Virus record (IMG/VR): IMGVR_UViG_3300033076_000920
Location: 1-58,059 of that record
Reading direction: 5' to 3' (one strand)
Length of the DNA: 58,059 nt
From: a virus
Lineage: Duplodnaviria; Caudoviricetes
The notes under the pieces are model-generated. The model searched no databases and was not told the DNA's origin. It saw nothing but the letters and a program-made list of their open reading frames with translations. Made by a program: the position numbers and the translations under genes. Shown here one piece after another: positions 10,574-52,272 of the stretch (position 1 is the first letter of the stretch; every line of letters begins with the position of its first letter).

Positions 10574-10575
10574 AC

Positions 10576-10654
10576 TTGCGCATCTCAACCGATGCGCTAT
10601 TGTCTCTCTCGTCGACACCCCGAGCGGGACGACAACAACCAAGGAGCCGACACC
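10576..10654 (+). promoter_or_regulatory. Promoter plus conserved hairpin leader, copy 4
   Basis: TTGCGC-16-TATTGT as in copy 1, then GACACCCCGAGCGGGACGACAACAACCAAGGAG. Confidence 0.72.
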
Positions 10655-10864: not shown

Positions 10865-10937
10865 CTTCAGCAGCCGCTAAGCTACTATCTCACCAACGGA
10901 CACCCCGAGCGGGACCGCGACAACCAGGAGACCGACC
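10861..10937 (+). promoter_or_regulatory. Promoter plus conserved hairpin leader, copy 5
   Basis: TTGACT-16-TACTAT, then GACACCCCGAGCGGGACCGCGACAACCAGGAG. Confidence 0.75.
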
Positions 10938-11339: not shown

Positions 11340-11362
11340 GCCGTCCCCCCAAGAAGCACGAA

Positions 11363-11394
11363 GCGCCCAGGTCATGCCTGGGCGTTGTCGTTTT
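11363..11394. terminator. Terminator-like hairpin between the convergent arms
   Basis: GCGCCCAGG-TCATG-CCTGGGCGT followed by TGTCGTTTT. Confidence 0.6.
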
Positions 11395-11407
11395 GTGCAA
11401 CGCGTGG

Positions 11408-11875
11408 CTAATCTTGCTTCTTATTCACCCAGTAGTTTCTTGGCATGCGGTTTCTTGCTTGCTCCAAAACAGTCGCCCACCTGACATTTCCTGGCTCGTA
11501 ATGCCCAATCGGATTGATGCGATCCACGGAGCAGCCCTTAGGTCTTGGTCCAAGCTCCTGAAAGAACTGTTCAAAAGACTCAAAACGAAACTCCACGTTT
11601 TTGTATGCAGGGTGATGCTTCTCACCCATTTTCACGCGTCGTTTCGCCCTCTCGTAAGACTTTGCCGCGTCTAGTTTTTGTGCATCATTCTTAACGCCAG
11701 TGCCTTTGCGAGGATGCGGCTTGTTGGCAAATCTAGTGCGATTGCGACATGGCTTGCAGAATAACTCTTTGTTGAGTCGTTGCGCTTTTCGCACAACATC
11801 TCCCCTAGCAAGCCTTTCGACTCCACAGTGAGTGCACTTGGTTACGACCAGCAAATTACCGTTTGGCATGGTCAA
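11408..11875 (-). CDS. Free-standing HNH (homing-type) endonuclease
   Basis: FEQFFQELGPRP.G.SVDRINPIGHYEPGNVRWAT..Q.RN; two CxxC; markedly AT-rich. Confidence 0.88.
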   Translation of the reverse strand: MTMPNGNLLVVTKCTHCGVERLARGDVVRKAQRLNKELFCKPCRNRTRFANKPHPRKGTGVKNDAQKLDAAKSYERAKRRVKMGEKHHPAYKNVEFRFESFEQFFQELGPRPKGCSVDRINPIGHYEPGNVRWATVLEQARNRMPRNYWVNKKQD

Positions 11876-25123: not shown

Positions 25124-26010
25124 CAGCCGTAGAACGCGAGCGACGTGCCCGCCTTGATGATGGGTCCAGTGACGAGGCCCGCGTTGAGGCCAAGCGCATC
25201 CTCGAACGTATTGCCGTAGAGCTTCGCGAACGCGTCAAGCGAGATGTCGTTGGGCAAGGTGATTTGCTGGACGTTGCGGTAGTTCTGCGAGGCGCCTGTG
25301 GCAGCCTGCGCGCGCAAGCCCATCGTCAAGCACTCGGACAGCCACTCGACCGGCACGTCGCGCAACAAGTCCCTGACCGCCACCTGGAGCGAGACGGTGT
25401 CGGCGTAGCCAGCGATGCGCTCTGCCTCACGCGAGTAGTCCAGGCTCTGCGTTGGCAGCGTGCCTAGGTTGTTCACCGCAAGCTCGAACGACTCGAACCC
25501 GAGGCCTTCTGGCACCTCATAGCCCGTGAGCTGCATCGCCTGGTCGAGCGCCTTGCCGTAGACCTTGGGCGAGAGCTCGGTCCCTGGGAGTCGCACCGTC
25601 AGCTCGGTCGGGTCGAAGAAGCTCTCGGCCCATGTGACCTGGAGCGTGATGCCTCCTCGGTCCTTCGACGGGTCTACGGTGGCCGACCACGTCATGACGC
25701 GGGCGAAGATGTTGCCCAGCACCGGATGCGATAGGCCGTCAATCTTGCCGTTTTCGAGCGCGTCTAGCCACTTCTCCAGCCTTGCTGGGAGCAGGTCAGA
25801 TGCGATGGTGTTGTTGAACACCAGCGTCGCGCGGATGCTGTACGGCGTGCGGCCAGTGTTGTCGTGCGCGGCGCCATCGACGTACGGATACTTGCGCTCG
25901 GCCTGGTCGTGCCCTCCGTCGAACGACGTTTCGATGCACGGTGCCGTAAGCGCGCCCCACGTGATCTCTTGGAGATTGCCGATCCAGTCGTATGCGCCGG
26001 ACATGGTCAA
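25123..26010 (-). CDS. Mu gp43-like 'DNA circularization' / tail initiator protein
   Basis: GGH......YPY.DG...D.TGR and L.HP.LG motifs; LysM-like C-terminus. Confidence 0.78.
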   Translation of the reverse strand: MTMSGAYDWIGNLQEITWGALTAPCIETSFDGGHDQAERKYPYVDGAAHDNTGRTPYSIRATLVFNNTIASDLLPARLEKWLDALENGKIDGLSHPVLGNIFARVMTWSATVDPSKDRGGITLQVTWAESFFDPTELTVRLPGTELSPKVYGKALDQAMQLTGYEVPEGLGFESFELAVNNLGTLPTQSLDYSREAERIAGYADTVSLQVAVRDLLRDVPVEWLSECLTMGLRAQAATGASQNYRNVQQITLPNDISLDAFAKLYGNTFEDALGLNAGLVTGPIIKAGTSLAFYG

Positions 26011-28568
26011 ACGCCTCCCGGCGTGCCGGTCACGTTGGCTTTGCCAGCTGCGCCTACGGTTTGAAGGGCACTTGCCGCAGCGTTCGCGGCTTGCATGAGC
26101 TTATCGAGCGAGGCCGCGTCCAGATCTTGAGTTGGCGCAAAACCGAGCGCCTTTTGTTGTGCACCGCTGGCCATCAGGCTTCGCTCGGAGATGAGTCGAT
26201 CCACAAGCGCGGAAGCTTGCTCTGTCTCTTGACCGCCTGTCATTTTTTGAGCAAGAGCTTTGCCCATCCATGCCGCCGGATTGATTGTCTCATTGAGAGT
26301 CGGCGTCATGCTGCCAGTGCTTGCGATTCGCTCAAACGTGCTTCGCGCTCTCGCTTCTACTAGCGTGCGCTGCACATCGCCCATGTCAGCGCCGCCCATG
26401 GCTGCGGTGTACTTCGCAATGAAGTCCTTTTGCGAAAGAAACTGCTTGCCGCCACCTTTGCCGATAACAGCCGTGCCGCCAGCAAGCGTGCTGCTGCTCA
26501 TCTTGCCTTGAATCTCTGTGACCTTGGCTTGCGCTGCCTTGAGGTCTGCCTCGGCCTTGGCTTTGTCCTCTGGCTTAGCGGCTGCGACCTTGCGAGCCGC
26601 TTTCTCTTCTTCGCGTTTTGCGATTTGAAGCTGCTTGTCTAGCGATGGTCGTTTCTTCTCGAAACCGAACATCTCCGCAAGCTCGGAGACGAACTCCATG
26701 TTTTCCGCAATGACGTCTGCGGCTAACTCAAAAGCGTCGATGACAGCGTCGATTGCGCCGCTGTTTTCAAGCTTTGTAAACGCATCAGCCAATGCTGGGA
26801 GCACCTTGTCTGTAACCTTTCCCGTCGCTCGCTCCCAAGCTGCTGTCATCTTGGCCGCTGTCGATTGCTGCGCCGCAGCTGCCGCCTCTTCGATGGTGTT
26901 GCGCGCGTCTGTAACGTTGGCCGCTTCTTCCAGTTCTCGGCGCACAGCTTCAGTAGCCTTGTTGAGATCTTTGCTGCGCATCATCTCTTCGTCGAACTTC
27001 GACTGAAGAATATTGATTACTGGCTCGGCCTGCGCGCCAAACATCTTTCCGAGCTTCGTCTTGTCGCCTTCTGTTTTTTTGAACGATTCGACGATCACGT
27101 CGTTGGTGTTGCGAAGCTGACGGTTTTTCGTGCCTGCAACGAATACATCGACGCCAGCCTTCTTGAACACGTCGGCGTGCGAAGTCATGGCGCGAAACAC
27201 GTTTTCAACCGCTGTAGTTGCTCCCTCGGCTGTGCCTCCACCTTTGCGAGCAATCTGCGCAAGCGCGCCTACCTGAGCCACACCCTTGACGCTCTTGTCT
27301 ACGTTGGCGCCTGCAGCGGCTGCGCTGATGCGGCCCATGAGCGACGCCATGTCCTTGAGCTCGAACTGACCTTGCGCGCCCTGAATGGCCAGCACCGAAA
27401 GCGCGTCGGCCATGTCCTCCGCGCCCTTGATATTCATGTTGTTTGACAGAGCCGCCGCAGCCTCAGCCACGTCTTGAATCTCTGCACCTGCGGCGCTGGC
27501 GACCGTGGCCAGACTCTTGAGTGTGCTCACGTCGAGCACCTGCCCAGTGGCGCCCTGGAAAGCCAACGTCGCCTGCGCCAAGCCGGCCGCAGTCTGGCCT
27601 GGCATCTCGCCCGCGGCCTCGTACATGTTCTGTCGGATCGTGCGAGCGTCGAGCATCTTGCCACCAGATAGGCGCGAGTTGATCGCCACGCGGCGCGCCA
27701 TCTCGTCGACTTGCATGCCTTCTGCAGTCATGCCGCCAATGATGCCAACGGTGCCCATGATACCAGCACCAGCAGCGCCGAGTGCTGCCATGCCTACCTC
27801 GCCAGCAAACTGCTTGCGAGCTTGCGACCTGGCTTTGCGACGGGCAGCGGCTTCTTGCTCTCGGTCAAACTGCAGCTCGCGATCCAAGTCCATCATGGCT
27901 TGGTGCTCTGCAGGCGTCATGGGCCCAGCGCCACGCTCTGCGATCTTGCGCTGAAGCAATGCCTTTCGCTTTGCTGCATCGCTACCTTCGCCACCTCCGC
28001 CAGCACCAGCACCGCCACCGCCGCCGCCACGGCCGCCGCCACCTCCGCCACCACGGCCACCGCCACCACCACCCGCACCGCCGCCACCGGCTCCACCCCG
28101 AGCTCCGCGACCGCCACCAGCGCCGCCACCGTCAGCACCACCGCCACCAGCTCCACCACCGGCCTCGCCCGTGATGCGTGCGATGGCTCGCGAGGTCGCT
28201 GCGGCACGTTCTCGAGCTGTAACCTCGCGAGCGCGCTGCTCGGAAAGGATGACGCGCGTTTTTTCTTTTTCGGCGCGTCGAACCTGCAGGATCTCTTCGT
28301 CGGAGCGCCGCTTCACCTGCTTGATTGACTCGCGCGTCATGTTCGCTTGAGCGCGCAAGTCGTTGTCGGCTCTGATCTCTTCGACGCTCTTGCCCACTCG
28401 CACGCGTTTTTGCGCGCGGTCCATGTGCTGCACCTGAGCGTTGGCCATGCGTTTCGCCGACTGCTCGGCCTTGACGGCGGCTTGTTCGGCTGCCGTGGTG
28501 ATCTTCTTGTACGCCTTGATCACCTCATCAGCGCCCGAGGCGACGAACTGGTACCGAATGACGGCCAT
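26007..28568 (-). CDS. Tape measure protein with a poly-Gly insert
   Basis: 853 aa, Ala-rich and helical; G.FELKDMA motif; position after the chaperone-like genes. Confidence 0.88.
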   Translation of the reverse strand: MAVIRYQFVASGADEVIKAYKKITTAAEQAAVKAEQSAKRMANAQVQHMDRAQKRVRVGKSVEEIRADNDLRAQANMTRESIKQVKRRSDEEILQVRRAEKEKTRVILSEQRAREVTARERAAATSRAIARITGEAGGGAGGGGADGGGAGGGRGARGGAGGGGAGGGGGGRGGGGGGGRGGGGGGAGAGGGGEGSDAAKRKALLQRKIAERGAGPMTPAEHQAMMDLDRELQFDREQEAAARRKARSQARKQFAGEVGMAALGAAGAGIMGTVGIIGGMTAEGMQVDEMARRVAINSRLSGGKMLDARTIRQNMYEAAGEMPGQTAAGLAQATLAFQGATGQVLDVSTLKSLATVASAAGAEIQDVAEAAAALSNNMNIKGAEDMADALSVLAIQGAQGQFELKDMASLMGRISAAAAGANVDKSVKGVAQVGALAQIARKGGGTAEGATTAVENVFRAMTSHADVFKKAGVDVFVAGTKNRQLRNTNDVIVESFKKTEGDKTKLGKMFGAQAEPVINILQSKFDEEMMRSKDLNKATEAVRRELEEAANVTDARNTIEEAAAAAQQSTAAKMTAAWERATGKVTDKVLPALADAFTKLENSGAIDAVIDAFELAADVIAENMEFVSELAEMFGFEKKRPSLDKQLQIAKREEEKAARKVAAAKPEDKAKAEADLKAAQAKVTEIQGKMSSSTLAGGTAVIGKGGGKQFLSQKDFIAKYTAAMGGADMGDVQRTLVEARARSTFERIASTGSMTPTLNETINPAAWMGKALAQKMTGGQETEQASALVDRLISERSLMASGAQQKALGFAPTQDLDAASLDKLMQAANAAASALQTVGAAGKANVTGTPGGV

Positions 28569-41374: not shown

Positions 41375-42727
41375 TTATCCCCAGTCAAACGAGCCATCCG
41401 AGAAGCCGGTGGCGCGGTAGGCCTTGGTGTGTAGTGCGTCGAACGCCGCAACGAAGGCGTCGACCTGGTCATCGTGTCGGTCTTTGATGCCTGTGAAGCT
41501 ACAGACCTCGTCGACGAAGTCTCTCAGCCACGGCGCCTCGCGCGGAACGTGAATGCGTTGGCTTGACCACGCCGCCGCTGTCGATGTCGCTCGTGAAAGC
41601 TTGTCCATCTTGGCCGGATCGGGCCGAAACGGTATGCCCTCGCGGCGCAGGAAGTCGACGGTGCCCTTCTCGGTGCCGCCGATGTAGCCATACAGCTTGG
41701 CACCTGGGAAGCGCTCGGTGAGCTCGCGCAGCGTCGCGGCAAACTCGGTTGCCTTGGCCTGCATGCGCCGCACGTCGAGCACGTACCAGGCGTCTAGCTG
41801 TGCGTTGTGCGCCATGACTACCGCGACGCTGTAGTCGGCGTAGCTGCTTTCGCTGTACGCGAGATCGATGCCGATGCTCACGCGATATGTCTCGGGGAGC
41901 TTGTCGTAGAAGGACACGCCCGAGAACAGCTGCCCGCCTCGAGGTCGCGGGCTACCCATGTAGAGCGCCCACCAGTCGTGCTCGCCAACGTCACGGCGCA
42001 CGCGCTCGAGAAACTTGGGCGGACGCTTGTACCAGAGGCTCTTGCCCTCGTCGTCGAGCGCCGGAAGGTTGATGACCTCCCATGCCTGACCCTCTTGTCG
42101 AGCGAGCTCGCCGATGAGGTCGTCGGGATGCCACCTCGTGTGGCATACGATGATGCTCGCGCCTGGGTGCACGCGCGTGAGAGCGGCGCTTGTCCACCAA
42201 TCGCGAATCTTGCCCCGTACAAGCGCGCTGTCGGCCTCCTCGCGGTTTTTGTATGGGTCATCGACGACCAGCACGCCCGAGATGCCGTGGCCTGTCAGCG
42301 GGCCGCCTACGCCGGTAGCGAGCAGTCCACCGCCTGCGTCGGTGCGCCACTCGGCCATGGCTGAGGAGTCGCCGCGGAGCTTGACGCCAGCGGCACGCGC
42401 GTAGTCACGGCAGAGCCTGGAGCGGCTGTGCGCGTAGTCGGCGCCATACGAGGTGAATGCGTTGGTCTTGTCGGGCCTGGCTGCGATGAGCTGCGCAAGC
42501 CCGTGCAGGATACAGAACGTCTTGCCGTGCTGCGGAGGCACCGACACAAGTAGCCGCACCTCCTCGCCGTTGCGGATGCGGTCGAAGGCACGACACAGGG
42601 CGCCGAGGTGCCGAGGCTCCTCGAGCAGCGGCGACACGCGAGGCACGAACTCCGCGAGCGGCAGGCGCCACAACGGCCTATTCGCCGCGCGCTGCACTGC
42701 CCAGGCTTGGAGTAGGGGCGTCGTCAT
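41375..42727 (-). CDS. terL: Terminase large subunit
   Basis: Walker A PPQHGKT, Walker B VVDDP, TRWH.DD, RNase H-like IDLA...DYS and HDDQVDA. Confidence 0.95.
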   Translation of the reverse strand: MTTPLLQAWAVQRAANRPLWRLPLAEFVPRVSPLLEEPRHLGALCRAFDRIRNGEEVRLLVSVPPQHGKTFCILHGLAQLIAARPDKTNAFTSYGADYAHSRSRLCRDYARAAGVKLRGDSSAMAEWRTDAGGGLLATGVGGPLTGHGISGVLVVDDPYKNREEADSALVRGKIRDWWTSAALTRVHPGASIIVCHTRWHPDDLIGELARQEGQAWEVINLPALDDEGKSLWYKRPPKFLERVRRDVGEHDWWALYMGSPRPRGGQLFSGVSFYDKLPETYRVSIGIDLAYSESSYADYSVAVVMAHNAQLDAWYVLDVRRMQAKATEFAATLRELTERFPGAKLYGYIGGTEKGTVDFLRREGIPFRPDPAKMDKLSRATSTAAAWSSQRIHVPREAPWLRDFVDEVCSFTGIKDRHDDQVDAFVAAFDALHTKAYRATGFSDGSFDWG

Positions 42728-42826: not shown

Positions 42827-43207
42827 CTAGCTGTGGCGAGCAAGAGCATACGCTGTAGCTTGATCATGAGCAACCGCGTCGAGTGTAGGGCTCGACTCCA
42901 CGCTATCTACCACGCTCGCGAACGTCTGCGCCAGTCGAGCGTTGCGAGTGTAGGCATTCCGATTGACGCCATGAGCTCGGCCCATGCACACGCACCGGCA
43001 GATGTTGCACGCGGCTGCCTTGCAGCGCTTGCCGCATGCGTGAGGCGAAGCCACTGGCGACGCATACACCACGCGCAGCCACCGCAAACACCTCGAGCAC
43101 GTGCGCCCAAAGCCTGGGAGCGGCAGCTGCATGCCGTCGCATGGCGTGGCGTCGTCGAGCTCGGTCACCACGAGCTGGCACGCGTCGCAGTGACCGATGG
43201 CTCTCAC
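42827..43207 (-). CDS. Cys-rich zinc-finger protein
   Basis: CDAC, CSRC, CGKRC..A....CRC.C.G.AHG; GTGA overlap with the upstream gene. Confidence 0.55.
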   Translation of the reverse strand: MRAIGHCDACQLVVTELDDATPCDGMQLPLPGFGRTCSRCLRWLRVVYASPVASPHACGKRCKAAACNICRCVCMGRAHGVNRNAYTRNARLAQTFASVVDSVESSPTLDAVAHDQATAYALARHS

Positions 43208-43701
43208 AGATGCCGCCGCACGAACTCAAGCAAACGAGGCAACGTCTCCTCGCAGGATAGAGGCGTCGTCGAGTCTATGCTTGCTGCTAGGTAGAACATG
43301 CCTTTCCCGCCATCTTCTCGCAGCAGGATGTGGGGCGAGTGCGTGTCGCAGCAGAACACCGTGCCAGGTGTCCACGGGTCATCGTGCTGCATCGCCGCGC
43401 CAGTCAATCGCCAGCCATCGTTGCGCACCACGAGTTGGTGTGTGTACCGAGGATATTTCGGGTCGGTATGGAGCGCGGTGCCGTTGCGCACGCCAATCCA
43501 GTGAGGACCGTTGAGGTCATCGCACGGGCGCGACCACGTCTGCAGACGCTTCGATCTGCCAAATCCAAACGCTATCACCAGCATCGAATCCCATCGCTTT
43601 GTCTCCAGTGCCTTGGCTGGTAGCTCGTCAGTGTGCGAGCGCCACACGACTGGGTGCAAGAGCTGACCTGGCTTGAGTGGCGCGCCTGGCTTCACGTTCA
43701 T
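43204..43701 (-). CDS. Possible 2OG-Fe(II)/cupin-fold enzyme
   Basis: HTD (HxD) plus distal PG......T..PH; ATGA overlap at 43701. Confidence 0.45.
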   Translation of the reverse strand: MNVKPGAPLKPGQLLHPVVWRSHTDELPAKALETKRWDSMLVIAFGFGRSKRLQTWSRPCDDLNGPHWIGVRNGTALHTDPKYPRYTHQLVVRNDGWRLTGAAMQHDDPWTPGTVFCCDTHSPHILLREDGGKGMFYLAASIDSTTPLSCEETLPRLLEFVRRHL

Positions 43702-44330
43702 CCGTAGGTCCTGCGATAGCTCTCGGAGTATCGGTTTGGATTCATGTTGTGACCGTAAAGGCTTTTGACCTCGTCGTGTTGCACGATGGCAGGCCACGCG
43801 CGAAGGTAGCGCAGACCACGAGCCTTGAGCCACGCAGCTGTGCCTGGGTCTGTTGCGTATGGTCGCTCGTTTGATCGCGTAAACTCTAGCATGTATGCGT
43901 TGTGATCCTCGACGAGTTGCACCGGAAACGCGATGGCTTGCGCCATGAGAAACTTTGCGCCTGGAAGCATCTCCCAGTTGCCAGGCGCTGGCAGCTCCTC
44001 GCCTTGCTTGATGCGTCGCCCCGAGTAGAACGACACCATACCAACGCGCTTGTCGGAGTGCGCGGCGCGAATCATCGGCAGCGCATGCGTCTCGAAGTCA
44101 GGCGCAAGGATGGCGTCGTCCTCAAACTGCAGCACCCACAGCGGCGAATCGCATGCACCTCGGTATGCGATGGCGTCGGCGTAGCTCTCGGCCACGCTGC
44201 GCCCCGGTGCATGCGCCGACAGGCCAGCATGCGGCGCAAACCTACGCACGCGCTCGAGCAGTGCGCTCGCGTCTCGCTTGCTTGGCACGGTGCGGATTGA
44301 CACCGCGATGTTTCCCCATTCGATGCTCAT
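43698..44330 (-). CDS. GT-A fold glycosyltransferase-like protein
   Basis: LQFEDDAIL (EDD), VSFY, P.IVQH...S..GH as in GT25-like phage enzymes; ATGA overlap. Confidence 0.65.
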   Translation of the reverse strand: MSIEWGNIAVSIRTVPSKRDASALLERVRRFAPHAGLSAHAPGRSVAESYADAIAYRGACDSPLWVLQFEDDAILAPDFETHALPMIRAAHSDKRVGMVSFYSGRRIKQGEELPAPGNWEMLPGAKFLMAQAIAFPVQLVEDHNAYMLEFTRSNERPYATDPGTAAWLKARGLRYLRAWPAIVQHDEVKSLYGHNMNPNRYSESYRRTYG

Positions 44331-45394
44331 AGACGGTCCCACCAAACCTTTCGCAAGTCTTTCTCTGTTTTCTTGGTTCTGGGCAAGCTGCCCTCCCAGT
44401 CGTTGAGTAGCAGCTGCTTTACCTGGTGTTGATACACAGCCTCGTCGTCAGGCTGCGATGCAAAGCGCTTGCGGAAGCGGTCAATGACCGACGTGTCAGT
44501 GGTCGCAAGCAGGTGGTCTCGATACGCGCGCCACGTCGCGTGTCCAGGCGGCAGCTCCGAGGCATCGTACACGTAGCGCTCGTGGCTGTAGTGCGCCGCG
44601 CAGTGCACGCCGCCGAGCCTGCGCACCATGCGCTCGTAGGTGTCCGGCTCGAACTCCTGCAGTGCCGCGAGCGAGCGAAACGCCTGCTCGTGGATCAGGT
44701 TGCTTACGCGCATCGTGCGGAGGTTTACGCCGCTGCGCGCGATCATCTGATCGTAGATGTGGTTGTATTCCAGGTTGTTGTCCGCGATCATCTTCCAGAC
44801 GTCGGAGCCTTGGAAGTCCCAGATCGGGTAGAATCGAAAGCTGTTTGGCGCGCCCTTGCATCGAGTTGACCACTGATAATGCTGATACCCGTTGGCCTTG
44901 AGCATCGCGCGTTGGCGATTCATTGACTCGAAGGTGCGCAGGCCCACGAGATGGGCGGTGGGCACCTTGTCTTGTGTCTCGAACCACTCGAAGAAGTCGT
45001 AGAACCTGTCTGGGTATTCTCCTTCGATGGCGTGCGTCGCGAGCTTGTGTTTTGGGTGCACCCACAGGTCAGGCGTCGCAGGGTCCCACGCGTGCAGGTA
45101 GAGCTCGCGGTGGCTTGTCGCGTTGGTCATGCGGATGGGCACCTGATACCAACGCGGGATCACGAGCGGATGCGACATGACGCTTTCGACCATGCGAATC
45201 GTCTCGGCGTACTCGGCCTCCTGGTCGAGAAAGAACACCTCGATCTTGCGGTTCGTGCGCTCTGCTTCCCAGAGCGCCAGCCAGAACAGGCACGTCGAGT
45301 CTTTGCCGCCGCTGTAGCTAACAACGATGCGCTCAAACTCGCGGAACACGAAGCGCATTCGGTTGCGCGCGCAGTCAAACACGCTTCTAACCAT
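44327..45394 (-). CDS. IbrA/YbdN-like PAPS-reductase-family (PP-loop) protein
   Basis: SYSGGKDS, FLDQEAEY, GLR..ES.NR, YPIWDF...DVW, YN.IYD, MRVS, EPDTY. Confidence 0.88.
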   Translation of the reverse strand: MVRSVFDCARNRMRFVFREFERIVVSYSGGKDSTCLFWLALWEAERTNRKIEVFFLDQEAEYAETIRMVESVMSHPLVIPRWYQVPIRMTNATSHRELYLHAWDPATPDLWVHPKHKLATHAIEGEYPDRFYDFFEWFETQDKVPTAHLVGLRTFESMNRQRAMLKANGYQHYQWSTRCKGAPNSFRFYPIWDFQGSDVWKMIADNNLEYNHIYDQMIARSGVNLRTMRVSNLIHEQAFRSLAALQEFEPDTYERMVRRLGGVHCAAHYSHERYVYDASELPPGHATWRAYRDHLLATTDTSVIDRFRKRFASQPDDEAVYQHQVKQLLLNDWEGSLPRTKKTEKDLRKVWWDRL

Positions 45395-46166
45395 GGAACG
45401 CCTCCGCGATGTTGTTGGTCAGGTCTACCATCATCCGTGCCTGGCTCGTGAGCCAGCGGTCGACGCCTAGGTCGGTGACAATGAGCTTGTGTCGCGGCGA
45501 TGCAAACACGTCTGGCAACGTGCGCTCGGGGCACGCACGCTGCGCAAACGTGGCGAGGCGTTTGATGATGGCGTTTGGCGTGCGCTCATCGGCAAACGCG
45601 GCCTCTTTCTCTTGCTGATATGCGTCGTGTGTCGACGCGCTCATCGGCAGCACCTCGACTTCGTGTTGCTCTACCCGGTAGCCATCTCGCCACACCAGCA
45701 CGCCTGCGCCGAAGCGCTTGAGCCGCGTCATGTTGCACGTCTGCTCCTCGAGCTTGCCGTCGAGGTAGAATCGCCAATCCGTCTCGACGCGGTAGCTGGT
45801 GTGGTACTTCTCGTGCGGCTCGCCGAACGGAGCTTCGACGGCGCCAAAGTGAAACCACATGCGCCACGGCTCGCCGATAAACGCGTGCGTGTCGACGCTC
45901 AGCCGCTGCGGCCCAGTCCATGGGTCGGTAAGAAACTGGCCGTACTTCATGCGGCTGCCAGGCCGGATGATGCGCGAGACCAGGTTGAGCAGCACCACGA
46001 CGTCGCACCCGTCGTAGTACTTGCGAGGATTGGCGACGAAGTCGTCGGCGAGCACGCGCCGCTCGACTGCTGGCGAATCGCTCTTGTGGTGCACCCACAG
46101 CGCCGACTTGTCGGTCGGCCAGCCCGAGCGCATCGGGTCACTCGTCAAGCAGATTCGGTGGCTCAT
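45387..46166 (-). CDS. Hypothetical protein between the IbrB-like and IbrA-like genes (start uncertain)
   Basis: Overlaps both neighbours; no intact catalytic motif recognised. Confidence 0.65.
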   Translation of the reverse strand: MSHRICLTSDPMRSGWPTDKSALWVHHKSDSPAVERRVLADDFVANPRKYYDGCDVVVLLNLVSRIIRPGSRMKYGQFLTDPWTGPQRLSVDTHAFIGEPWRMWFHFGAVEAPFGEPHEKYHTSYRVETDWRFYLDGKLEEQTCNMTRLKRFGAGVLVWRDGYRVEQHEVEVLPMSASTHDAYQQEKEAAFADERTPNAIIKRLATFAQRACPERTLPDVFASPRHKLIVTDLGVDRWLTSQARMMVDLTNNIAEAFHG

Positions 46167-46767
46167 CGTCCCTCCCGTAGCTGCTGTTGTACTCGACGCC
46201 AGCGATCATCCTTGCCGCTCCCACGATCTGCTTGAGCCTAAGCATCTCCTCGACGCTCATGCCGAGGCGTCGCGCGATGGCATCGTCGCTCATGCCAAGC
46301 TTGCTCATGGCCACCACGAGCGCGCCTTGTAGGTCGACCTGGTGCTTTCCGCGCGCGCGGTTGTGCCGCACCGTGGACGCCATCAGGTCCCCGCGTGGGG
46401 CCTCAATGATGCTGCAGGGGATCCACGTGCGCATGAGGCGCGTGGAGGCCACGAGACGGCGGTGGAAGCCGTCCACGACCGTGTAGCGGTGCGCATCGCC
46501 TGACACGACCACGGGCATGGTAATTCCATCGGCGGTCATGCTCTGCTCGAGCAGCGCGAGCTCGGGCGATGCCACTCGGTTAGGGTTGTAGTCGTTGGCG
46601 TGCAGCGCGCTGACGTGCACCAGCTGCGGGCGTGTCGCCGGGTCGGCGGGCAGGTCGTGCAAGAGCGCCTTGGCAGCCTCGCGCACGATCTCGTTGAAAA
46701 GCGCAACACGCCCAGCCTGCGAGAGGCTAGACGCGTCGGCCAGAAGGTCTTGAAGCTGCTTCATCAT
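46138..46767 (-). CDS. IbrB/YbdM-like ParB/Srx-domain protein with C-terminal HTH
   Basis: ANDYNPN.VA.PE..LL..S...DG.T.P.V, VVDGFHR, STVRHNRARGKH, IA..LGM..EE..RL. Confidence 0.9.
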   Translation of the reverse strand: MMKQLQDLLADASSLSQAGRVALFNEIVREAAKALLHDLPADPATRPQLVHVSALHANDYNPNRVASPELALLEQSMTADGITMPVVVSGDAHRYTVVDGFHRRLVASTRLMRTWIPCSIIEAPRGDLMASTVRHNRARGKHQVDLQGALVVAMSKLGMSDDAIARRLGMSVEEMLRLKQIVGAARMIAGVEYNSSYGRDDEPPNLLDE

Positions 46768-47021
46768 CCGCCTCGTCGCAGGAAGAGTCGGTCATCCTCC
46801 GTCATGAGCTTTTTCGCTTCGGCCCTGAGGGCCTTGGAGTCGAGCCGGGGCCAGGGCATGTGTTTTTCCCATGCTTCAAGCTCGATGCGGTTGGCGACCT
46901 CGTTGATCGCCAGTGCGATAGAACGCTTGCTGTGCATCCTCATGGCCGCATCTCGCTCGGCTTCCCCCCATCGGCTGCATTCTGCATCGACCAGAATCTG
47001 AATGGCTTGTTCGCGTGTCAT
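46764..47021 (-). CDS. Small hypothetical protein, first gene of the ibrAB-like operon
   Basis: ATGA overlap with the ibrB-like gene; ATG 6 nt after a -10 box. Confidence 0.6.
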   Translation of the reverse strand: MTREQAIQILVDAECSRWGEAERDAAMRMHSKRSIALAINEVANRIELEAWEKHMPWPRLDSKALRAEAKKLMTEDDRLFLRRGG

Positions 47022-47027
47022 GCCCAG

Positions 47028-47056
47028 ACACTAGCGCTAGACCTCTCGCGCGTCAA
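47028..47056 (-). promoter_or_regulatory. Sigma70-like promoter, probably leaderless, for the ibrAB-like operon
   Basis: TTGACG (47056-47051), 17 nt, TAGTGT (47033-47028). Confidence 0.65.
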
Positions 47057-47073
47057 GCGTCGCATTCGCTTTT

Positions 47074-47877
47074 TTAGCTGACGGTGTCCAAGGCTGGCAT
47101 GAAGTCGCGCCACAGGCGGTGCAGGCTGGGGTAGTAGTGCCGCAGCCATGCGGCATGGGTACGGCTACGCCCGCACACCCACCAGCTCTTGCGCACGGTC
47201 CACGGCGCGTCTCGGTGTATGTACCCGATGCAGCGGTAGAGGGGCAGCAGGGGCACCTCGCGCGAGTGCACGTATGCCAGCACGTCGAGGCCCGACCACC
47301 ACGCTAGAGGGTGGGCATGCACCCTGCCCGACTTGAGCCTTGCGACTGGGCCAGCGGTAGAGAGGCGCATCATGCGGGCGTCGTTTTCCTGCGCTCGCAG
47401 CCCCATCATGACGCACCCGTAGGCTGCACTGGCTCGGTCGACGAGGTCGTAGAACACCACACGCGACAGGCCAGCGGAGCGCGAGTGTAGGTCCTGGTCG
47501 ACCTCGCGCATGTGCTCGCGCAGATAGTCGAGCGCCGAGACATCGGGCCGCAGCACCTCGAGCTGTGCGCCCCATCGCGCGGCGAGCTCGCGCACGAACG
47601 CCTCTTCGCCTGGGTAGTCTAGGTCGTCTTTCTGCGAGATGAGCGGCACGTGCTGCAGCCCGAGCTCGTGCGTCACGAGATGAGCGAGGCACGTGGAGTC
47701 CTTGCCTGCTGACCACATGACGCACGCGCGCGGCTCTAGCTCTAGCGCCTCGAGCACGTAGCGCTTGGCTTGCGTGACGCGACGCTGGAAGCCTGGCGAG
47801 CGCGCATGCACGTCGCACACGCGCCGCCAGTAGTCCCACGCCTCATGGTCCTCGCGACGTAGGACCGGCTCTGTCAC
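47074..47877 (-). CDS. Type IV-B-associated CysH-like PAPS-reductase-family protein
   Basis: WSAGKDS PP-loop, MGLRAQE..R, PLA.W...DV.AY; lacks the C-terminal ECGLH; coupled to csf3. Confidence 0.85.
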   Translation of the reverse strand: MTEPVLRREDHEAWDYWRRVCDVHARSPGFQRRVTQAKRYVLEALELEPRACVMWSAGKDSTCLAHLVTHELGLQHVPLISQKDDLDYPGEEAFVRELAARWGAQLEVLRPDVSALDYLREHMREVDQDLHSRSAGLSRVVFYDLVDRASAAYGCVMMGLRAQENDARMMRLSTAGPVARLKSGRVHAHPLAWWSGLDVLAYVHSREVPLLPLYRCIGYIHRDAPWTVRKSWWVCGRSRTHAAWLRHYYPSLHRLWRDFMPALDTVS

Positions 47878-48548
47878 TGGCGGATGGCCTCTGCAGGCAC
47901 GGCGATCGGCACCTCAAGCCATCGGGTCCAGTAGGGGTAGGTGAGCGTGCCCTGGCTGAGCTGCGCCTGGTCCGAGAGGCCAGGATAGTCGGCTGGCAGG
48001 TTGCGCATCGGCATGCCATCTCGCAGCACTGGAAAGCCAGGCCACAGCTCGTCGTCGCGCATCTCACGCACGGCCCACGCGATGACTCGCCCGCATCCGG
48101 TCGCGCGCTTTTTGCCAACGTATGAGATGAGCTGCAGCAACCGCCACACCTCGTCTCGGTCGCCGACGCACCACCAGGTCATGCGGTCACCTGCAGCGTG
48201 AAACGTGCGCAGCGGCAGCCGGTACGAGCGCGCCGCGCCGGCGTCGATGCGATACGACCGAAACCGTTGCTCTCCCAGTGCTTGCGCCTCTTGCTGTGGA
48301 AAGCGTCGGTTGATCCATCGTTGCTCTGACTCTTCGACCTCGCAGTGTCCGACGCTGGCGAGGTGAAAGCGCCGCGAGTCATGCCATGCGACTGGGATAT
48401 CGACATGCTTGAGCTCGGTTTCGAGCGGGGCGTTGTAGATGCCCTGCTCCATGGCGACGGCTGCGGCGAGCAGCCCATCAAGGGCAAGCGGTCCGTTGGG
48501 TAGTGCCACGGCGCCTCGGAGCGTGGCGACGACCTCGAGCGGCGTCAC
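47874..48548 (-). CDS. csf3: Type IV CRISPR-associated Cas5-group RAMP
   Basis: L.LDGLLA.A, IP+, W.CVGD..EV..LL, G-loop VGKKRATGCGRV..W, R.LP, PYW. Confidence 0.85.
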   Translation of the reverse strand: MTPLEVVATLRGAVALPNGPLALDGLLAAAVAMEQGIYNAPLETELKHVDIPVAWHDSRRFHLASVGHCEVEESEQRWINRRFPQQEAQALGEQRFRSYRIDAGAARSYRLPLRTFHAAGDRMTWWCVGDRDEVWRLLQLISYVGKKRATGCGRVIAWAVREMRDDELWPGFPVLRDGMPMRNLPADYPGLSDQAQLSQGTLTYPYWTRWLEVPIAVPAEAIRQ

Positions 48549-49567
48549 GCTTCCACCTGCCCGAGGAAGCTTCGGATCTCGGTCTTGCGCTCCGCGACGT
48601 GCGCGCGAAAGAGCTCGCCCACGCGCGGCGCTAGCTCAGCTGGTGCGATGGGCAACAGCGCGTCCGCTGGTCTCGCCAGCTCGATGTCCCACGCCTTGAC
48701 CGGTCGCACCTCGCCGTGGCCTGTGCCGCGCTTGCCACCGACGCGAGCGCGAGACAGGAAGCCCACCGCGGCCAGCCGGAACGTGTCGAGCGCGAGCGCG
48801 CTGTACACCGTAGCCTGGCATCCCCAGTAGAAAAGCGACCCTTGCGCGATGCGCTCGTATCGGCGCGGCATCATGGCGCTCTTGCTCTTGCCTCGCGCGA
48901 CGGCGTCGTCGCTCTCGCTAGCTGCTTCGCTGTCTGCGAGCTTGCCCAGCATCTTGACTTGGTCCTCGCCGCTCGTGAGCTCACGCAGCGATGGCCGTAG
49001 CATCGGGTCCATGCGCACGCGCTGCACCTCCTCGACGTGCTCGCGCGCGGTGGCGATATGCGCACCGGTCTCGCGCACGTACGCCATGACGTGCTCTGGC
49101 ACGAAGCGCGCCGTCTCGTCGCAGATAACAGTGGCATCGTCCACCTCGAGCATGCCTGGAATCATGCGGTTCTGTGCGCATCCGCCGAATAGCTCGAGCG
49201 CTGGCACGAGCTCGCAGAGCTTGCGGTACTCGTCGAGGCGCACGACGGCTCCATCCGATCCGCGGCCCTTGATCATGCCGCCCGCAAAGAGCAGACGCAA
49301 CGCGGCCTCGTTCAGCGTGTTGCGCTCGAGCAGCCCTGCGGCGTCGAGAAACATGTACGCCGCAGCCTCGCGCATGCCGTGGCGCATCGTGTCGGCGGTC
49401 ACGATGGGCACGAGCGAGAAGCGGCCATCGGCGCGACGCACCTTGCGGCGCATGATGACGGCCTCGTTTCCGATGGACTCGGCGTGGTGCGCGATGGGCT
49501 GTGCAGCCTCGAGCACGAAGTCGTAGCGATGGCGTTGCATGCTGGTCTTGCTGGTATTGTCAGACAT
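48545..49567 (-). CDS. csf2: Type IV CRISPR-associated Cas7-group backbone RAMP
   Basis: PI.H, VP.V.A..MRH.MR, LF.GG, P.L.LFGG....IPG.L.V, E.IA.GS, G-loop GGKRGTGHG.V. Confidence 0.88.
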   Translation of the reverse strand: MSDNTSKTSMQRHRYDFVLEAAQPIAHHAESIGNEAVIMRRKVRRADGRFSLVPIVTADTMRHGMREAAAYMFLDAAGLLERNTLNEAALRLLFAGGMIKGRGSDGAVVRLDEYRKLCELVPALELFGGCAQNRMIPGMLEVDDATVICDETARFVPEHVMAYVRETGAHIATAREHVEEVQRVRMDPMLRPSLRELTSGEDQVKMLGKLADSEAASESDDAVARGKSKSAMMPRRYERIAQGSLFYWGCQATVYSALALDTFRLAAVGFLSRARVGGKRGTGHGEVRPVKAWDIELARPADALLPIAPAELAPRVGELFRAHVAERKTEIRSFLGQVEA

Positions 49568-49958
49568 CGTCGATCTCCCCTTCGTGTGCCCTGCGTTCCT
49601 CTGCGCGCGTCTCGGTAATGAGTCGCGCCATGGCCATGAGTAGCCCTGTCTCTCGCTCGACGAGGTCGAGCACTTCGCGGTCGCCGTGGTCGCGTGCGAC
49701 CTTCGACAGATCCCACAGCGTTTGCGCGCCGAGCTTGTCGAGCGTCGTGGGCAGCTGCAGCCCGCGCAGCACAGCCGTGGTCCACTCGTCGACCGTGCCG
49801 CAGCGTCGAGCTGCGCTCAAGATGCGCCCTTGTAGCTGCTCCCAGTGCTTGAGCACCACGGCGGCGCCGTAGGTGCGCAGGTATCTTCGGCGTGCCGCGA
49901 GGATGAACTCAACCAGAGCGGTGCGCGCCTTGTCTGCGTGTTGTTCGCTTAGACTCAC
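49560..49958 (-). CDS. Type IV-B small subunit (Cas11-like)
   Basis: 132-aa all-helical protein (W..L..RI.SAA) between csf1 and csf2, the IV-B Cas11 position. Confidence 0.7.
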   Translation of the reverse strand: MSLSEQHADKARTALVEFILAARRRYLRTYGAAVVLKHWEQLQGRILSAARRCGTVDEWTTAVLRGLQLPTTLDKLGAQTLWDLSKVARDHGDREVLDLVERETGLLMAMARLITETRAEERRAHEGEIDDV

Positions 49959-50832
49959 TGCGTTTCCCCTTCTCTTTGATCATGCGCGCGGCGACGGTCT
50001 CCTCGTCGCGTTGCGCGAGCCACAGACAGAGCGCAAACCACGCAAGCGATCTCGCGTAGCTCCAGTCGCGCTCGAAGTGTTCGATGCGCTCACGGCATCG
50101 CTGGTATGCGTGCGAGGTGTACGCGCCGCGCTGAAGCTCCTCTTTGGTGGCGCCCGCCGTCAGGAGCTCGGTCATGTCTCCGACCAAGCTCCAAAGCCGA
50201 GACGACGCCGGTGGGATGAATACCTCGGACTCCTCGAAGCGCACGCGCCCGCTGCCTCGGCGCATGTTGATTGGCGTGTACGGCAGCACGTGCTTTTGGC
50301 CCGTGTCGGAGATAGCGGCGAACCATGTGCACGGCTCGAGCGGGCTCGACGTTGCCATGCGGCGCAAGAAGGCCAGGATCTTGGGCTTCTCTCCCTTGGT
50401 GGCGTTGTCGAGCGTATGCCCGTCGTAAAGGTGGGTGAAGTTACTCCACCTGCCTGCGCTTTCCTTGCGGCATGTACCGTCGCACTTGGCGCATGGCTGC
50501 CCAGGCTCGCGGTGCCCTCGGTTGCCTTTGCGAGCCTGCGCTTGCGATGGCTCGACGCCGGTGCCGTTGCATCGATCGCACGGCTTTGGCTCTCGGCCCA
50601 CGACTGGCGAAAACCGAGCGCGCACGTACACGCATGCCTCGCATACGTGGTCCGAGTGCGGCGAGCAAAACGACGTCTGGTCAGTCAGTGATGAGCCGAT
50701 GAACTCCCACACGGGCTTGCCGCGCGTACTGTGCCCACCGCACATCGCGCACGGCTCGACATCGTGCGTGGAGCAGCCTTCGACGGCAGGCCAACCAACG
50801 TAGGCGTGCGAGATCTGCGAGGCCGACTTCAT
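49909..50832 (-). CDS. csf1: Type IV CRISPR-associated large subunit (Cas8-like)
   Basis: CAMCG, TD, VCEAC zinc motifs; I...GQKHV...P.N; start MKSAS overlaps the upstream stop (ATGA). Confidence 0.8.
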   Translation of the reverse strand: MKSASQISHAYVGWPAVEGCSTHDVEPCAMCGGHSTRGKPVWEFIGSSLTDQTSFCSPHSDHVCEACVYVRARFSPVVGREPKPCDRCNGTGVEPSQAQARKGNRGHREPGQPCAKCDGTCRKESAGRWSNFTHLYDGHTLDNATKGEKPKILAFLRRMATSSPLEPCTWFAAISDTGQKHVLPYTPINMRRGSGRVRFEESEVFIPPASSRLWSLVGDMTELLTAGATKEELQRGAYTSHAYQRCRERIEHFERDWSYARSLAWFALCLWLAQRDEETVAARMIKEKGKRSESKRTTRRQGAHRSG

Positions 50833-51110
50833 CGCTTGACCATCCGCGCTGATTGGTAGGGCAGCATCTGCCGCATGCGCCATTCTCGCAGCGCGTTGGT
50901 GTGGGCGCGCACTTCGTTGTGCGCCAGGTCGAGGAACACCGGCAGCGGATCGCGCTTGCGAAGCGCCAGCTGCCTCGCGTTCTGCGGGGTGATATCGCCG
51001 AGCTGAGCCGCGATGTGCTTCCACGACGAGACCCAGCCGTGCTCAAGCGCGCCCTCGAGCTGTGCGACGCGATTCTCTAGGTCCTCGAGACGCGAGAGCG
51101 CATCTTTCAT
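50829..51110 (-). CDS. Small excisionase/AlpA-like HTH protein
   Basis: WKHIA..LG...........PLPV.......A....L.EW. Confidence 0.6.
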   Translation of the reverse strand: MKDALSRLEDLENRVAQLEGALEHGWVSSWKHIAAQLGDITPQNARQLALRKRDPLPVFLDLAHNEVRAHTNALREWRMRQMLPYQSARMVKR

Positions 51111-51319
51111 GGCTTGGCGGCTCGGTAACGCCGGATGTGCACCACCTTGTAGGTGATGGTCTTGGGCGATTCTTGGCGTAGCGCGCGAGCTCGGAAGAGT
51201 GCGGCGCCTCGCGAGCCGAACTGCGTGGTCGGCGTGATAGCGGTCTTGTCGCCGATGGGCCCGCGGCGCTCGCCGTTCACGTAGTAGATCACCTGCCAGT
51301 ACTCGAAGATGAGGTGCAT
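51107..51319 (-). CDS. Small hypothetical protein
   Basis: Starts just after the ssb stop; ATGA overlap downstream. Confidence 0.5.
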   Translation of the reverse strand: MHLIFEYWQVIYYVNGERRGPIGDKTAITPTTQFGSRGAALFRARALRQESPKTITYKVVHIRRYRAAKP

Positions 51320-51320
51320 C

Positions 51321-51773
51321 TTAGAACGGGAGTTCATCGACGCCTCCCTCGGGCGAGTAGTCCGCGACCTGCGGCTGTGCTCGTCGAGCTCCACCGCCGT
51401 GGCTACCGTTGCCGCGTGCTCCCTGCTCGCTCTCTGGCCCTCGGCCTGCGAGGTAGACCTGGCTAGCGTGCACCTCGGTCTTGTAGCGCTTCTCGCCGGT
51501 TTTCTTGTCGTCGTAGCTCGTGGTGCGCAGCGCGCCCTCGACGATAACGGTGGAGCCCTTGCGCAGGATGCGTGCGAGCCCTTCGGCGCGCTTGCCCCAC
51601 ACCACGACGCGCACCCATTCGGTGCGTTGCTGGCGCTCCTTGTTTGCGTCGAGGTAGCTCTCATTGATGGCGAGCGACAGCGTCATCACGCTCGCGCCGC
51701 CTTGCGTGCTGCGCAGCTCGGGGTCTTGCCCGAGGTTGCCCATCACGATGACCTTGTTCATTCCCTCAGCCAT
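51321..51773 (-). CDS. ssb: Single-stranded DNA-binding protein
   Basis: NKVIVMGNLGQDPELR, TEWVRVVVWGK.AE, KG..V.VEG.L.T, C-terminal DELPF. Confidence 0.97.
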   Translation of the reverse strand: MAEGMNKVIVMGNLGQDPELRSTQGGASVMTLSLAINESYLDANKERQQRTEWVRVVVWGKRAEGLARILRKGSTVIVEGALRTTSYDDKKTGEKRYKTEVHASQVYLAGRGPESEQGARGNGSHGGGARRAQPQVADYSPEGGVDELPF

Positions 51774-52272
51774 GTCGTGTCCCTTTCCATGCTTCACTTG
51801 CGGCCATGAAGGCCTCGATTGTTTGCGTGATGATGTTGGCGAGCGCCGGGTGCTGCGAGCTGCAGGACAGGGCGAGCCAAGCTTTGATGCTCAGCTTGGG
51901 CGCCTTGGCCTTGCGCTGGTCTGCTTCGTACGCCTCGCGTGTGGCTGGCATGTGCGCGGCCAGGTTGGCTAGCTGGCCCAAGTGAGCCACGGTTTGCGGT
52001 GGTGCGTTGGCGCCTCCGTAGACATGCCAGAGCGCGCTAGCGTGCTCGGTCGTGAGAGCGTCAAGCCGCTTGCGGATGGCTCGGTGCCGTGCTGTCGCGC
52101 GCATGTGCGCGTCCGTCATGCGCTGGTCGGGCTTGGCAGCGCTGCCACCGAACGCGCCCTGAGCGGCTGACACCATCGGGCCCCAGCTGCTGGCGATGCC
52201 CATCTCGCTCGCGGATTGCTGCCAGTACCAGGTGAGGTCGTCGTTAGCGATGGGCCGCGGCTTCGGTCGCAT
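51766..52272 (-). CDS. Hypothetical protein, possible late transcription regulator
   Basis: Start MRPKP; L.WY and I...L..L.......L...Y resemble phage Q/sigma-like activators (weak). Confidence 0.45.
   Translation of the reverse strand: MRPKPRPIANDDLTWYWQQSASEMGIASSWGPMVSAAQGAFGGSAAKPDQRMTDAHMRATARHRAIRKRLDALTTEHASALWHVYGGANAPPQTVAHLGQLANLAAHMPATREAYEADQRKAKAPKLSIKAWLALSCSSQHPALANIITQTIEAFMAASEAWKGTRHG

Follow-up and report, generated by a model that had tools for sequence, protein, structure and literature searches.

A type IV-B Cas block joined to an IbrAB cassette upstream of a phage terminase gene: a recurrent composite and candidate nucleic-acid modification system

The csf block and the Ibr cassette

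The IMG/VR virus record IMGVR_UViG_3300033076_000920 (58,059 bases, linear, GC about 64%, CheckV completeness 78%), analysed whole and referred to below as the window, carries a type IV-B Cas block followed on the same strand by a cassette of Ibr genes, with the terminase gene terL just downstream (Table 1). The first block comprises csf1, a cas11-like gene, csf2, csf3 and a cysH-like gene. The second contains a small gene (p85), the IbrB gene, a 259-codon gene (p259), the IbrA gene, and genes for a GT-A-like glycosyltransferase and for a small protein with an HxD..H motif. An earlier note on this DNA had listed these genes, together with a zinc-finger gene next to terL (the Cys-rich protein of Table 1), and had read the two blocks as one pathway. 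Every gene on its list was recovered as a minus-strand open reading frame (ORF), and the layout it gave was borne out: the blocks are 52 nt apart, terL lies 99 nt past the last gene of the region (about 100 in the note), neighbours within the blocks share 4 to 50 nt, mostly as ATGA-type 4-nt overlaps, and the two genes of the PAPS-reductase family span 3.55 kb (44327-47877; 3.6 kb in the note). As the note had assumed, csf1 probably begins with the ATG at 50832; a longer ORF, 49909-51024, would overlap the upstream 93-aa gene (p93).

Table 1. Features of the region, in window coordinates, with the matches on which each assignment is based.
Feature	Position	Strand	Basis
csf1 (type IV Cas8-like large subunit)	49909-50832	minus	PADLOC Csf1_0_IV 9.6e-17; CxxC pairs
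cas11-like small subunit	49560-49958	minus	PADLOC Cas11_3_IV 4.1e-6; type IV Cas11 models 4.1e-6 to 0.019, weak; position as expected
csf2 (Cas7 backbone)	48545-49567	minus	PADLOC Csf2_0_IV 5e-40; phrog_22746 6.6e-26
csf3 (Cas5)	47874-48548	minus	PADLOC Csf3_0_IV 3e-37
cysH-like PP-loop protein, type IV-B signature accessory	47074-47877	minus	Pfam PAPS_reduct 3.8e-11; 4-nt overlap with csf3
Inter-block gap	47022-47073		52 nt; small hairpin and, read by eye, TTGACG-17 nt-TAGTGT on the minus strand
p85, small gene, family unassigned	46764-47021	minus	ORF; only in the window's closest relatives
IbrB (ParB/Srx-like)	46138-46767	minus	phrog_2159 1.5e-52
p259, predicted Snf2-like core	45387-46166	minus	AlphaFold2 model; fold searches
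IbrA (PP-loop ATP pyrophosphatase)	44327-45394	minus	PAPS_reduct PF01507 4.1e-17 and DUF3440 PF11922 5.3e-12, both above cut-offs; phrog_2302 2.3e-84
GT-A-like glycosyltransferase, 210 aa	43698-44330	minus	phrog_854 glucosyltransferase 5.4e-8
HxD..H protein, 165 aa, small 2OG/Fe(II)-oxygenase-like	43204-43701	minus	invariant H78, D80, H121, H124 (17 sequences)
Exchangeable Ibr cassette, p85 to HxD..H gene	43196-47018		3.8 kb; DNA similarity with L003-L005 ends at 43195 and 47016-47019
Cys-rich 126-aa protein	42827-43207	minus	outside the exchangeable cassette, kept with terL; 84-93% in L003-L005 despite the other cassette
terL (context)	41375-42727	minus	Terminase_6N and Terminase_6C (Pfam); phrog_38 6e-72
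p93, family unassigned	50829-51110	minus	stop overlaps csf1 start; 93-96% conserved only in the near-identical contigs L002-L005

The first block has the composition of type IV-B: Csf2 and Csf3, Csf1 and a Cas11-like protein (the latter a weak match), and an adjacent cysH-like gene. Matches to the NCBIfam models fall below the cut-offs (csf1 with TIGR03114, 2.7e-7, 30.5 bits against a cut-off of 140; csf2 with TIGR03115, 4.5e-13; csf3 with TIGR03116, 2.6e-12). PADLOC found no adaptation gene, Cas6 or DinG/RecD helicase among the 17 proteins encoded between 42.8 and 53.8 kb, and scans of the remaining ORFs of the window with PHROGs or Pfam returned no Cas1, Cas2, Cas6 or DinG/RecD name. The locus is array-less, as the note had stated: neither Tandem Repeats Finder (TRF) nor a spaced-repeat search revealed a CRISPR array in any of the 58,059 bases, a negative that covers the 58-kb record at its 78% completeness, and an array may lie elsewhere in the genome. 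Array-like spaced repeats were likewise lacking in eight related loci, and an Rfam scan of the window returned zero families. Weak Cas6-like matches occur just upstream of csf1 in two related loci (L006:8159-8857, PADLOC 5.8e-5; L014:3436-4584, 2.1e-5), both array-less and without spaced repeats. In another type IV-B locus, a Cas12f/TnpB-like ORF (L007:12592-14589, PADLOC Cas12u1 6.6e-45), probably an insertion sequence element, lies directly 3' of the cysH-like gene.

The block thus resembles known type IV-B loci, for instance that of the Mycobacterium sp. JS623 Csf complex, which in the available parts of the published accounts (PMC7937560, PMC8175902, PMC7038947) combine csf1, cas11, csf2, csf3 and an adjacent cysH-like gene, lack cas1/cas2, cas6, helicase and array, and are borne by mobile elements. 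It differs from them in being joined to an IbrB/Snf2-like/IbrA cassette with tailoring enzymes and in lying in a tailed phage upstream of terL. Neighbours described for type IV-B are cysH, ADP-ribosyltransferase, methylase and single-strand DNA-binding protein (SSB) genes; the available text of four sources (PMC8175902, PMC7038947, 10.1101/270033, PMC10848311; supplementary locus tables excluded) mentions no ParB or Ibr partner. In the literature searched, csf2 and ParB occurred together in nothing except a conference abstract book, and queries on type IV-B CRISPR, DUF3440, phage IbrA/IbrB and PAPS reductase with ParB yielded no csf-Ibr link. Within the literature that could be searched, we did not find the recurrent composite presented below described.

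The Ibr genes form an exchangeable unit. Three near-identical contigs (L003-L005), whose flanking proteins are 93-99% identical to those of the window, carry in its place an alternative cassette made of a small ORF, an N6/N4 methylase, a GNAT protein, p312, IbrA' and IbrB' (L003:12549-16371). Hence, near-identical phages swap the cassette for another IbrAB trio rather than losing it. By breakpoint mapping, the Cys-rich gene that the earlier note had counted in the second block falls outside this unit. Metagenome contigs have loose ends at 47019 in three runs and at 43195 in two; in those runs the cassette side is a single low-variation contig, and the csf side, rich in variants, adds up to 2-5 times its depth. 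The presence of the window-type cassette at a fraction of the csf-side depth suggests that the two cassettes are co-existing alleles in natural populations.

Linkage and separability of the two modules

Loci for comparison were fetched with IbrA (59 loci), with csf2 (7) and through alignments of p259 (15 viral, 3 genomic and 39 metagenomic), supplemented by 26 from a csf2-clade and 33 from a cysH-clade alignment; the window cysH gene, as a single-protein query, recovered only close relatives. ORFs were classified with hidden Markov models (HMMs) built on these same loci, PADLOC confirming the csf genes in ten, and trio lineages were collapsed at 90% IbrA identity. In this gene-neighbourhood survey, of the kind suggested in the earlier note, csf genes adjoin a Snf2-like/IbrA/IbrB trio in 23 of 53 trio lineages. 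Linkage differs with gene order. The window order, IbrB-p259-IbrA, accompanies csf genes in 14 lineages, that is, in 14 of the 14 whose DNA is informative for csf, the four without them sitting on contigs no longer than 3.2 kb. In a second class of trio, p312-IbrA'-IbrB', seven lineages out of eight show the link. The order p259-IbrA-IbrB is found with csf genes in two lineages, both on low-GC contigs that carry the composite in another gene order (L112, GC 0.33, and L113), and without them in eight lineages flanked by 4 kb or more on each side and in 17 with shorter flanks. The composite is also present on a haloarchaeal plasmid, that of Actinarchaeum halophilum (NZ_CP071309.1, locus L083), where csf2, csf3, cysH, IbrB, p259 and IbrA run in one direction (5958-11783 of the locus). 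Annotations at this locus are limited to hypothetical, ParB N-terminal and PAPS reductase family, and it adjoins orc1/cdc6 and MCM genes.

The two gene sets are often interleaved. In nine loci (L012, L013, L014, L017, L096, L153, L160, L164, L165) cysH lies beyond, or downstream of, the Ibr genes, and in three others (L069, L094, L099) csf3 does. In a tree of IbrA from 34 informative lineages, which left out 18 with no csf gene seen and less than 4 kb of flank, the csf label changes four times, at least three of these changes being forced. A single origin of the linkage, with all linked lineages in one clade of this tree, was rejected (approximately unbiased (AU) test, p 4.8e-54). The csf2 gene of the window groups with loci lacking Ibr genes, and its cysH gene falls in a clade whose members are mostly linked to Ibr genes. 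When pairwise distances were compared across 20 composites, the genes sorted into two evolutionary modules: correlations are stronger within each (IbrA-IbrB, r 0.70; csf2-csf3, 0.52; cysH-csf3, 0.50) and weak between them (IbrA-cysH, 0.21; IbrA-csf2, 0.18). An expectation that cysH would follow the Ibr genes held only in part; its clade is mostly Ibr-linked, but its correlation with csf3 exceeds that with IbrA.

Altogether, the two blocks are modules that can occur apart and have come together on several occasions, often with their genes intermixed, and we take the repeated joining and the interleaving as evidence of functional synergy. The earlier proposal of one pathway stands as far as linkage goes, in the count of 23 among 53 trio lineages, in the interleaving and in the repeated joining; its analogy with Dnd systems does not (see below). 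What the note had named as a refutation, independent occurrence of the cassettes with no enrichment of co-occurrence, came out divided: the independence is real, and co-occurrence is clearly enriched. Accessory modules are known to shuffle around type III systems as well.

Such independence admits another explanation, namely that two autonomous systems share an accessory or anti-defence hot spot upstream of the terminase, the type IV-B genes and CysH doing one job and the IbrAB trio modifying or regulating DNA alone, with no functional coupling. A series of observations speaks in its favour or weighs against joint action. Complete genomes show either module by itself: IbrA is absent throughout five complete type IV-B phage genomes, and csf2 is absent from a complete genome with the trio (the record behind L019). 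In the csf2 clade to which the window belongs, 17 of 18 lineages have no IbrA; in a cysH-based scan, 10 of 20 lineages have it and 10 lack it. No csf genes are present in nine trio lineages that have 4 kb or more of flank on either side, and one locus (L073) lost the csf block and kept the trio. A Rhodococcus plasmid locus has only cysH and csf genes, and the isolated actinophage Skermania phage SPI1 (L081, KR011061.1) has csf2, csf3 and a cysH-like gene at 8569-11461 of its locus (tblastn and local HMMs) with no Ibr gene nearby. The cassette is swapped as a unit with sharp boundaries that leave cysH outside, the csf-cysH block staying constant, and co-divergence between the modules is weak. 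The terminase is just downstream in the window and in L006, L015, L073 and L076, and the site may be a common insertion point. A promoter-like string can be read by eye in the 52-nt gap; a consensus scan of that gap found no promoter and no minus-strand terminator-like site. The linkage counts themselves call for caution: the family calls are made with HMMs derived from the same loci, and the sample is biased, many loci having been fetched with Ibr or cysH queries. Finally, the published type IV-B complex bound heterogeneous RNA and no DNA activity of type IV-B is known, according to the available parts of PMC7937560 and PMC8175902.

Full autonomy fits poorly, however, with the 12 or more loci in which Ibr genes lie between cysH or csf3 and the rest of the csf block, with at least 3-4 independent joinings across GC contents of 0.33-0.75 plus the archaeal plasmid, and with a replacement cassette that is again an IbrAB trio. 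Both parts are, moreover, rare: csf2 matched one of 50,697 phage records, and among 1.84 billion proteins only 101 representatives belong to the family of p259. On this evidence, we regard two uncoupled systems as a possible explanation, if one on the unlikely side, and favour joint action of the two blocks, as one ATP-dependent nucleic-acid modification system, as the best explanation, at about even odds.

Some loci show partial or related arrangements. In one contig (L150/L155) a homologue of the window glycosyltransferase (around 12472 of L150) occurs with csf3 and cysH and without IbrA, IbrB or p259; the transferase, lying between csf3 and cysH, can therefore accompany type IV-B alone. About 4 kb 3' of a type IV-B locus without a recognised IbrA (L132), a PAPS-reductase-like ORF (around 16755) is paired with a ParB-like one (around 17946); the first of these scored as cysH-like by HMMs and was not counted as an Ibr link. 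In SPI1, the csf block corresponds to Orf42-Orf44, probably Orf40-Orf44, all annotated as hypothetical, and the two upstream ORFs may be csf1 and cas11.

Motifs, predicted folds and known modification systems

The p259 protein has no family match in Pfam, PHROGs, NCBIfam or PADLOC, nor is there a Pfam model in its relatives. Its AlphaFold2 model, computed from a 77-sequence alignment (predicted local distance difference test, pLDDT, 95.9), was compared with known structures. With VIA-align, all 17 PDB chains scoring Z of at least 8 came from entries of SWI2/SNF2 remodellers or of a poxvirus RNA polymerase complex (Z 8.1-11.5, with 217-242 of the 259 residues aligned), two of them being chains of the latter with the subunit unassigned; the best was CSB (Z 11.5, root-mean-square deviation 5.2, 242 residues aligned). 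Foldseek matched PDB entries at E 2.2e-4 and, in BFVD, phage SSL2/SNF2 helicases as the best hits (E 2e-6). No Walker A motif (GxxGxGK[ST]) was seen on inspecting the sequence, SNF2-rel_dom and Helicase_C gave no match in p259 or 76 relatives, and Y183 is the sole residue invariant in the 77 sequences of the family. A sequence-profile search of the PDB returned one chance match (E 0.53), and tblastn against phage records zero. From the Snf2-type fold, the lack of a visible Walker A motif and the single invariant residue, we take p259 to be a Snf2-like DNA-binding core that has probably lost ATPase activity. The p312 protein of the alternative cassette is a weak relative (hhalign 74.6%, E 2.7e-5). 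Judging by these results, p259 and p312 would represent a third subunit of many IbrAB pairs, one that we did not find described in the literature searched and to which a fold can now be assigned. Two type IV-B loci, of which one is a composite, have a full-length SNF2-type helicase next to them (L065:11594-13372, L008:7021-8736; Pfam SNF2-rel_dom, PADLOC DpdE/ZorD-like).

The flanking genes of the trio conform to the IbrA/IbrB pairs of prophages and phages. IbrA has PAPS_reduct followed by DUF3440 and matches phrog_2302; the adjacent IbrB, a phrog_2159 member that co-diverges with IbrA, is a ParB-N-type partner although its ParB_N match is below cut-off (4.4e-5, 23.9 bits against 26.3). The window composite departs from such pairs by its third subunit (p259 or p312), by the order IbrB-p259-IbrA and by the Csf linkage. 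Residues invariant in 43 IbrB sequences are N58, N61 P62 N63 and D99 G100 H102 R103, forming N-P-N and D-G-x-H-R motifs. The PP-loop is invariant both in IbrA (S28 G30 K31 D32 S33, 42 sequences) and in the CysH-like protein (G58 K59 D60 S61, 16 sequences). Conserved cysteines are scarce: across 49 IbrA sequences every alignment column stays below 85% Cys (16, 29 and 22 of 49 in the richest three), and Cys216, the sole candidate in the CysH-like protein, is conserved only in a 7-sequence subclade.

These features bear on the Dnd analogy drawn in the earlier note. Dnd and Ssp phosphorothioation systems (DndC with DndB; SspD) also combine a PP-loop enzyme of the PAPS-reductase family with a ParB-like protein, and partial PADLOC matches to DndC are seen in the window (2.1e-10). 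However, these matches cover short stretches only, IbrA has no conserved cysteine, and no DndA, DndD, DndE or Ssp partner was matched by PADLOC among the 17 proteins of the region. Dnd-like sulfur insertion by IbrA accordingly looks unlikely from the alignments, and phosphorothioation was dropped as a candidate chemistry. Another parallel is found in Dpd 7-deazaguanine modification, where a ParB-like ATPase (DpdB) and the SNF2-type DpdE accompany the base-modifying DpdA (available text of PMC12839542); the SNF2 helicases beside L008 and L065 match PADLOC DpdE models. In contrast to Dpd, the window has no transglycosylase, p259 has no visible ATPase motifs, and the chemistry would be PP-loop adenylation. 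The helicase-bearing type IV systems (IV-A with DinG, IV-D with RecD; PMC7038947, in the part available) likewise pair a Csf effector with a partner of superfamily 1 or 2 helicase fold acting on duplex DNA. Unlike these, p259 is a 259-residue core without a visible Walker A motif, it is encoded in the Ibr cassette rather than in the cas operon, and there is no array.

Two further cassette genes look like genes for tailoring enzymes. In the putative glycosyltransferase, D71 D72, D161 and H185 are invariant in 11 sequences; it has no Pfam match, and the PDB sequence-profile search gave one chance match (E 0.76). The HxD..H protein has no sequence-family match and its PDB sequence-profile search was empty, but its AlphaFold2 model (pLDDT 87.7) matches 2-oxoglutarate (2OG)/Fe(II) oxygenases in VIA: ALKBH6 (Z 7.8), PolD (7.7), proline hydroxylases (7.4-7.7) and NgTET1 (6.7). 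These scores are middling (Z 6-7.8, with 120-135 residues aligned in the best matches), and the Atlas leads, Asp_Arg_Hydrox and 2OG-FeII, agree with them. Phage DNA hypermodification pairs an oxygenase with a glycosyltransferase, as in TET/JBP-type enzymes with a glycosyltransferase, and T-even phages glucosylate their DNA; here, a small oxygenase-like protein adjoins a GT-A-like transferase. The window pair differs in having no sequence match to the known families, with an oxygenase fold score of at most Z 7.8, and in being optional, relatives having GNAT and methylase genes instead. In L073 and L076 an N6_N4 methylase ORF separates IbrB from p259, and L003 has one as well. Small GNAT acetyltransferase genes are found in four composite loci at varied positions (L013:11682-12023, L017:4882-5241, L099:2584-2994, L003:13253-13747). 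The Cys-rich protein, p85 and p93 were without match in scans of Pfam, PHROGs, NCBIfam and PADLOC.

Some of this evidence could be read in terms of RNA. The Csf filament would then capture host or phage RNA (CRISPR RNA, tRNA or other) for modification by the two PP-loop enzymes, in counter-defence or host takeover, DNA not being the substrate. PP-loop enzymes of the TilS-like and thiolase types do modify RNA, and those that transfer amines lack Cys, as does IbrA; the PP-loop motifs of both IbrA and the CysH-like protein are intact. In addition, the solved type IV-B complex assembled on heterogeneous non-CRISPR RNA (available part of PMC7937560), and an anti-CRISPR role through capture of CRISPR RNA has been discussed, though judged unlikely, in the part of PMC7038947 that was available. 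Yet the cassette partners look DNA-directed (ParB-like and Snf2-like proteins here, DNA methylases in relatives), and no RNA-binding domain was matched in the cassette by Pfam, PHROGs, NCBIfam or PADLOC, so that an RNA-directed system seems distinctly unlikely.

A further possibility is that the composite regulates or partitions rather than modifies, IbrA and IbrB being DNA-binding regulators and the Csf ribonucleoprotein an RNA-guided repressor timing late or packaging genes. The model for this is E. coli IbrAB, reported as regulators of eib gene expression; the ParB-like nature of IbrB and the position just upstream of terL agree with it, as does the lack of nucleases in type IV systems (available part of PMC8175902). 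Against it, catalytic motifs are intact in both PP-loop enzymes, in the glycosyltransferase and in the oxygenase-like protein, the exchange of tailoring enzymes between alleles fits chemistry better than regulation, and no array or guide RNA was found (window, eight related loci, Rfam). A regulatory role therefore appears very unlikely.

The phage setting is as follows. A minus-strand run from 58 kb down to 14 kb begins with the replication initiator, DnaB and SSB genes, continues through the csf/Ibr region and proceeds to terL, portal, head, tail sheath, tape measure and baseplate genes; this gene set identifies the phage, a freshwater one, as contractile-tailed. The left arm encodes RecT, a PD-(D/E)XK exonuclease, dUTPase, an N6/N4 DNA methylase and ThyX. 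Of these, dUTPase, the methylase (PF01555 7.2e-31) and ThyX are clustered on the plus strand at 4933-7788; the phage therefore has at least one more DNA-modifying enzyme outside the cassette. Its TerL is at most 32% identical to those of isolated phages, and the 8.2-kb region had no megablast match among 50,697 phage records. An 8.3-kb stretch is present in freshwater, estuary, reservoir, lake and sediment runs from 12 studies. In one metatranscriptome run, five short contigs fall within the glycosyltransferase, IbrB, p85, cysH and csf3 genes, for which DNA carry-over is possible. Two further features lie outside the region. A long ORF (51107-51664) runs in a different frame across part of a clear SSB gene (51321-51797, phrog_44 7.4e-46) and is likely real only in its last 76 codons or so (51107-51337), the short product being conserved in L003-L005. 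At 27971-28177, imperfect GC-rich repeats of 9-15 nt, with Gly/Ala-type codons on the minus strand, lie inside a tape-measure-like ORF (26007-28568).

Proposed mode of action

The ParB-like and Snf2-like proteins, the two intact PP-loop enzymes without a sulfur-handling cysteine and the interchangeable tailoring enzymes make the cassette point to DNA as the substrate, with adenylation followed by tailoring as the chemistry. A scheme can be drawn on this basis, in which physical coupling, DNA as the substrate, the chemistry and the protective role are inferred from the gene content, the predicted folds, the linkage counts and the cassette boundaries. Expression of the system would fall between that of the replication and packaging genes. 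IbrB and p259 would hold duplex DNA, and an RNA-loaded Csf filament would open access to a strand or site. The PP-loop enzymes would then activate the target atom via adenylation, and tailoring enzymes (oxygenase and glycosyltransferase here, methyltransferase and GNAT in the allelic cassette) would complete a bulky adduct shielding phage DNA from host nucleases. In its full form, the scheme makes the Csf ribonucleoprotein the targeting or strand-opening module of a covalent DNA modification: this CRISPR-derived effector would not cut but write an adduct onto a base, with PP-loop adenylation by CysH and IbrA as the first step and tailoring with glycosyl, acetyl or methyl groups as the next. 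To this module the Ibr trio would add DNA handling and catalysis, and each of the exchangeable cassettes would specify an adduct of its own. We put this full form forward tentatively and consider it rather doubtful as a whole.

Type IV-B has lacked a known function ever since its definition as a subtype, and the unexplained link to cysH is, according to the available parts of PMC7038947 and PMC8175902, the key to it. The composite provides defined candidate partners for type IV-B, namely a second PP-loop enzyme, a ParB-like protein, a Snf2-like protein and tailoring enzymes. Natural controls are available in phages with csf genes only, phages with the trio only and near-identical phages that differ only in the 3.8-kb cassette. 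As a by-product, Skermania phage SPI1 is flagged as bearing an unannotated type IV-B block. In conclusion, csf and Ibr genes are found paired time and again, in many phages that are unrelated and on one plasmid of an archaeon, and their pairing offers a testable lead on the function of type IV-B.

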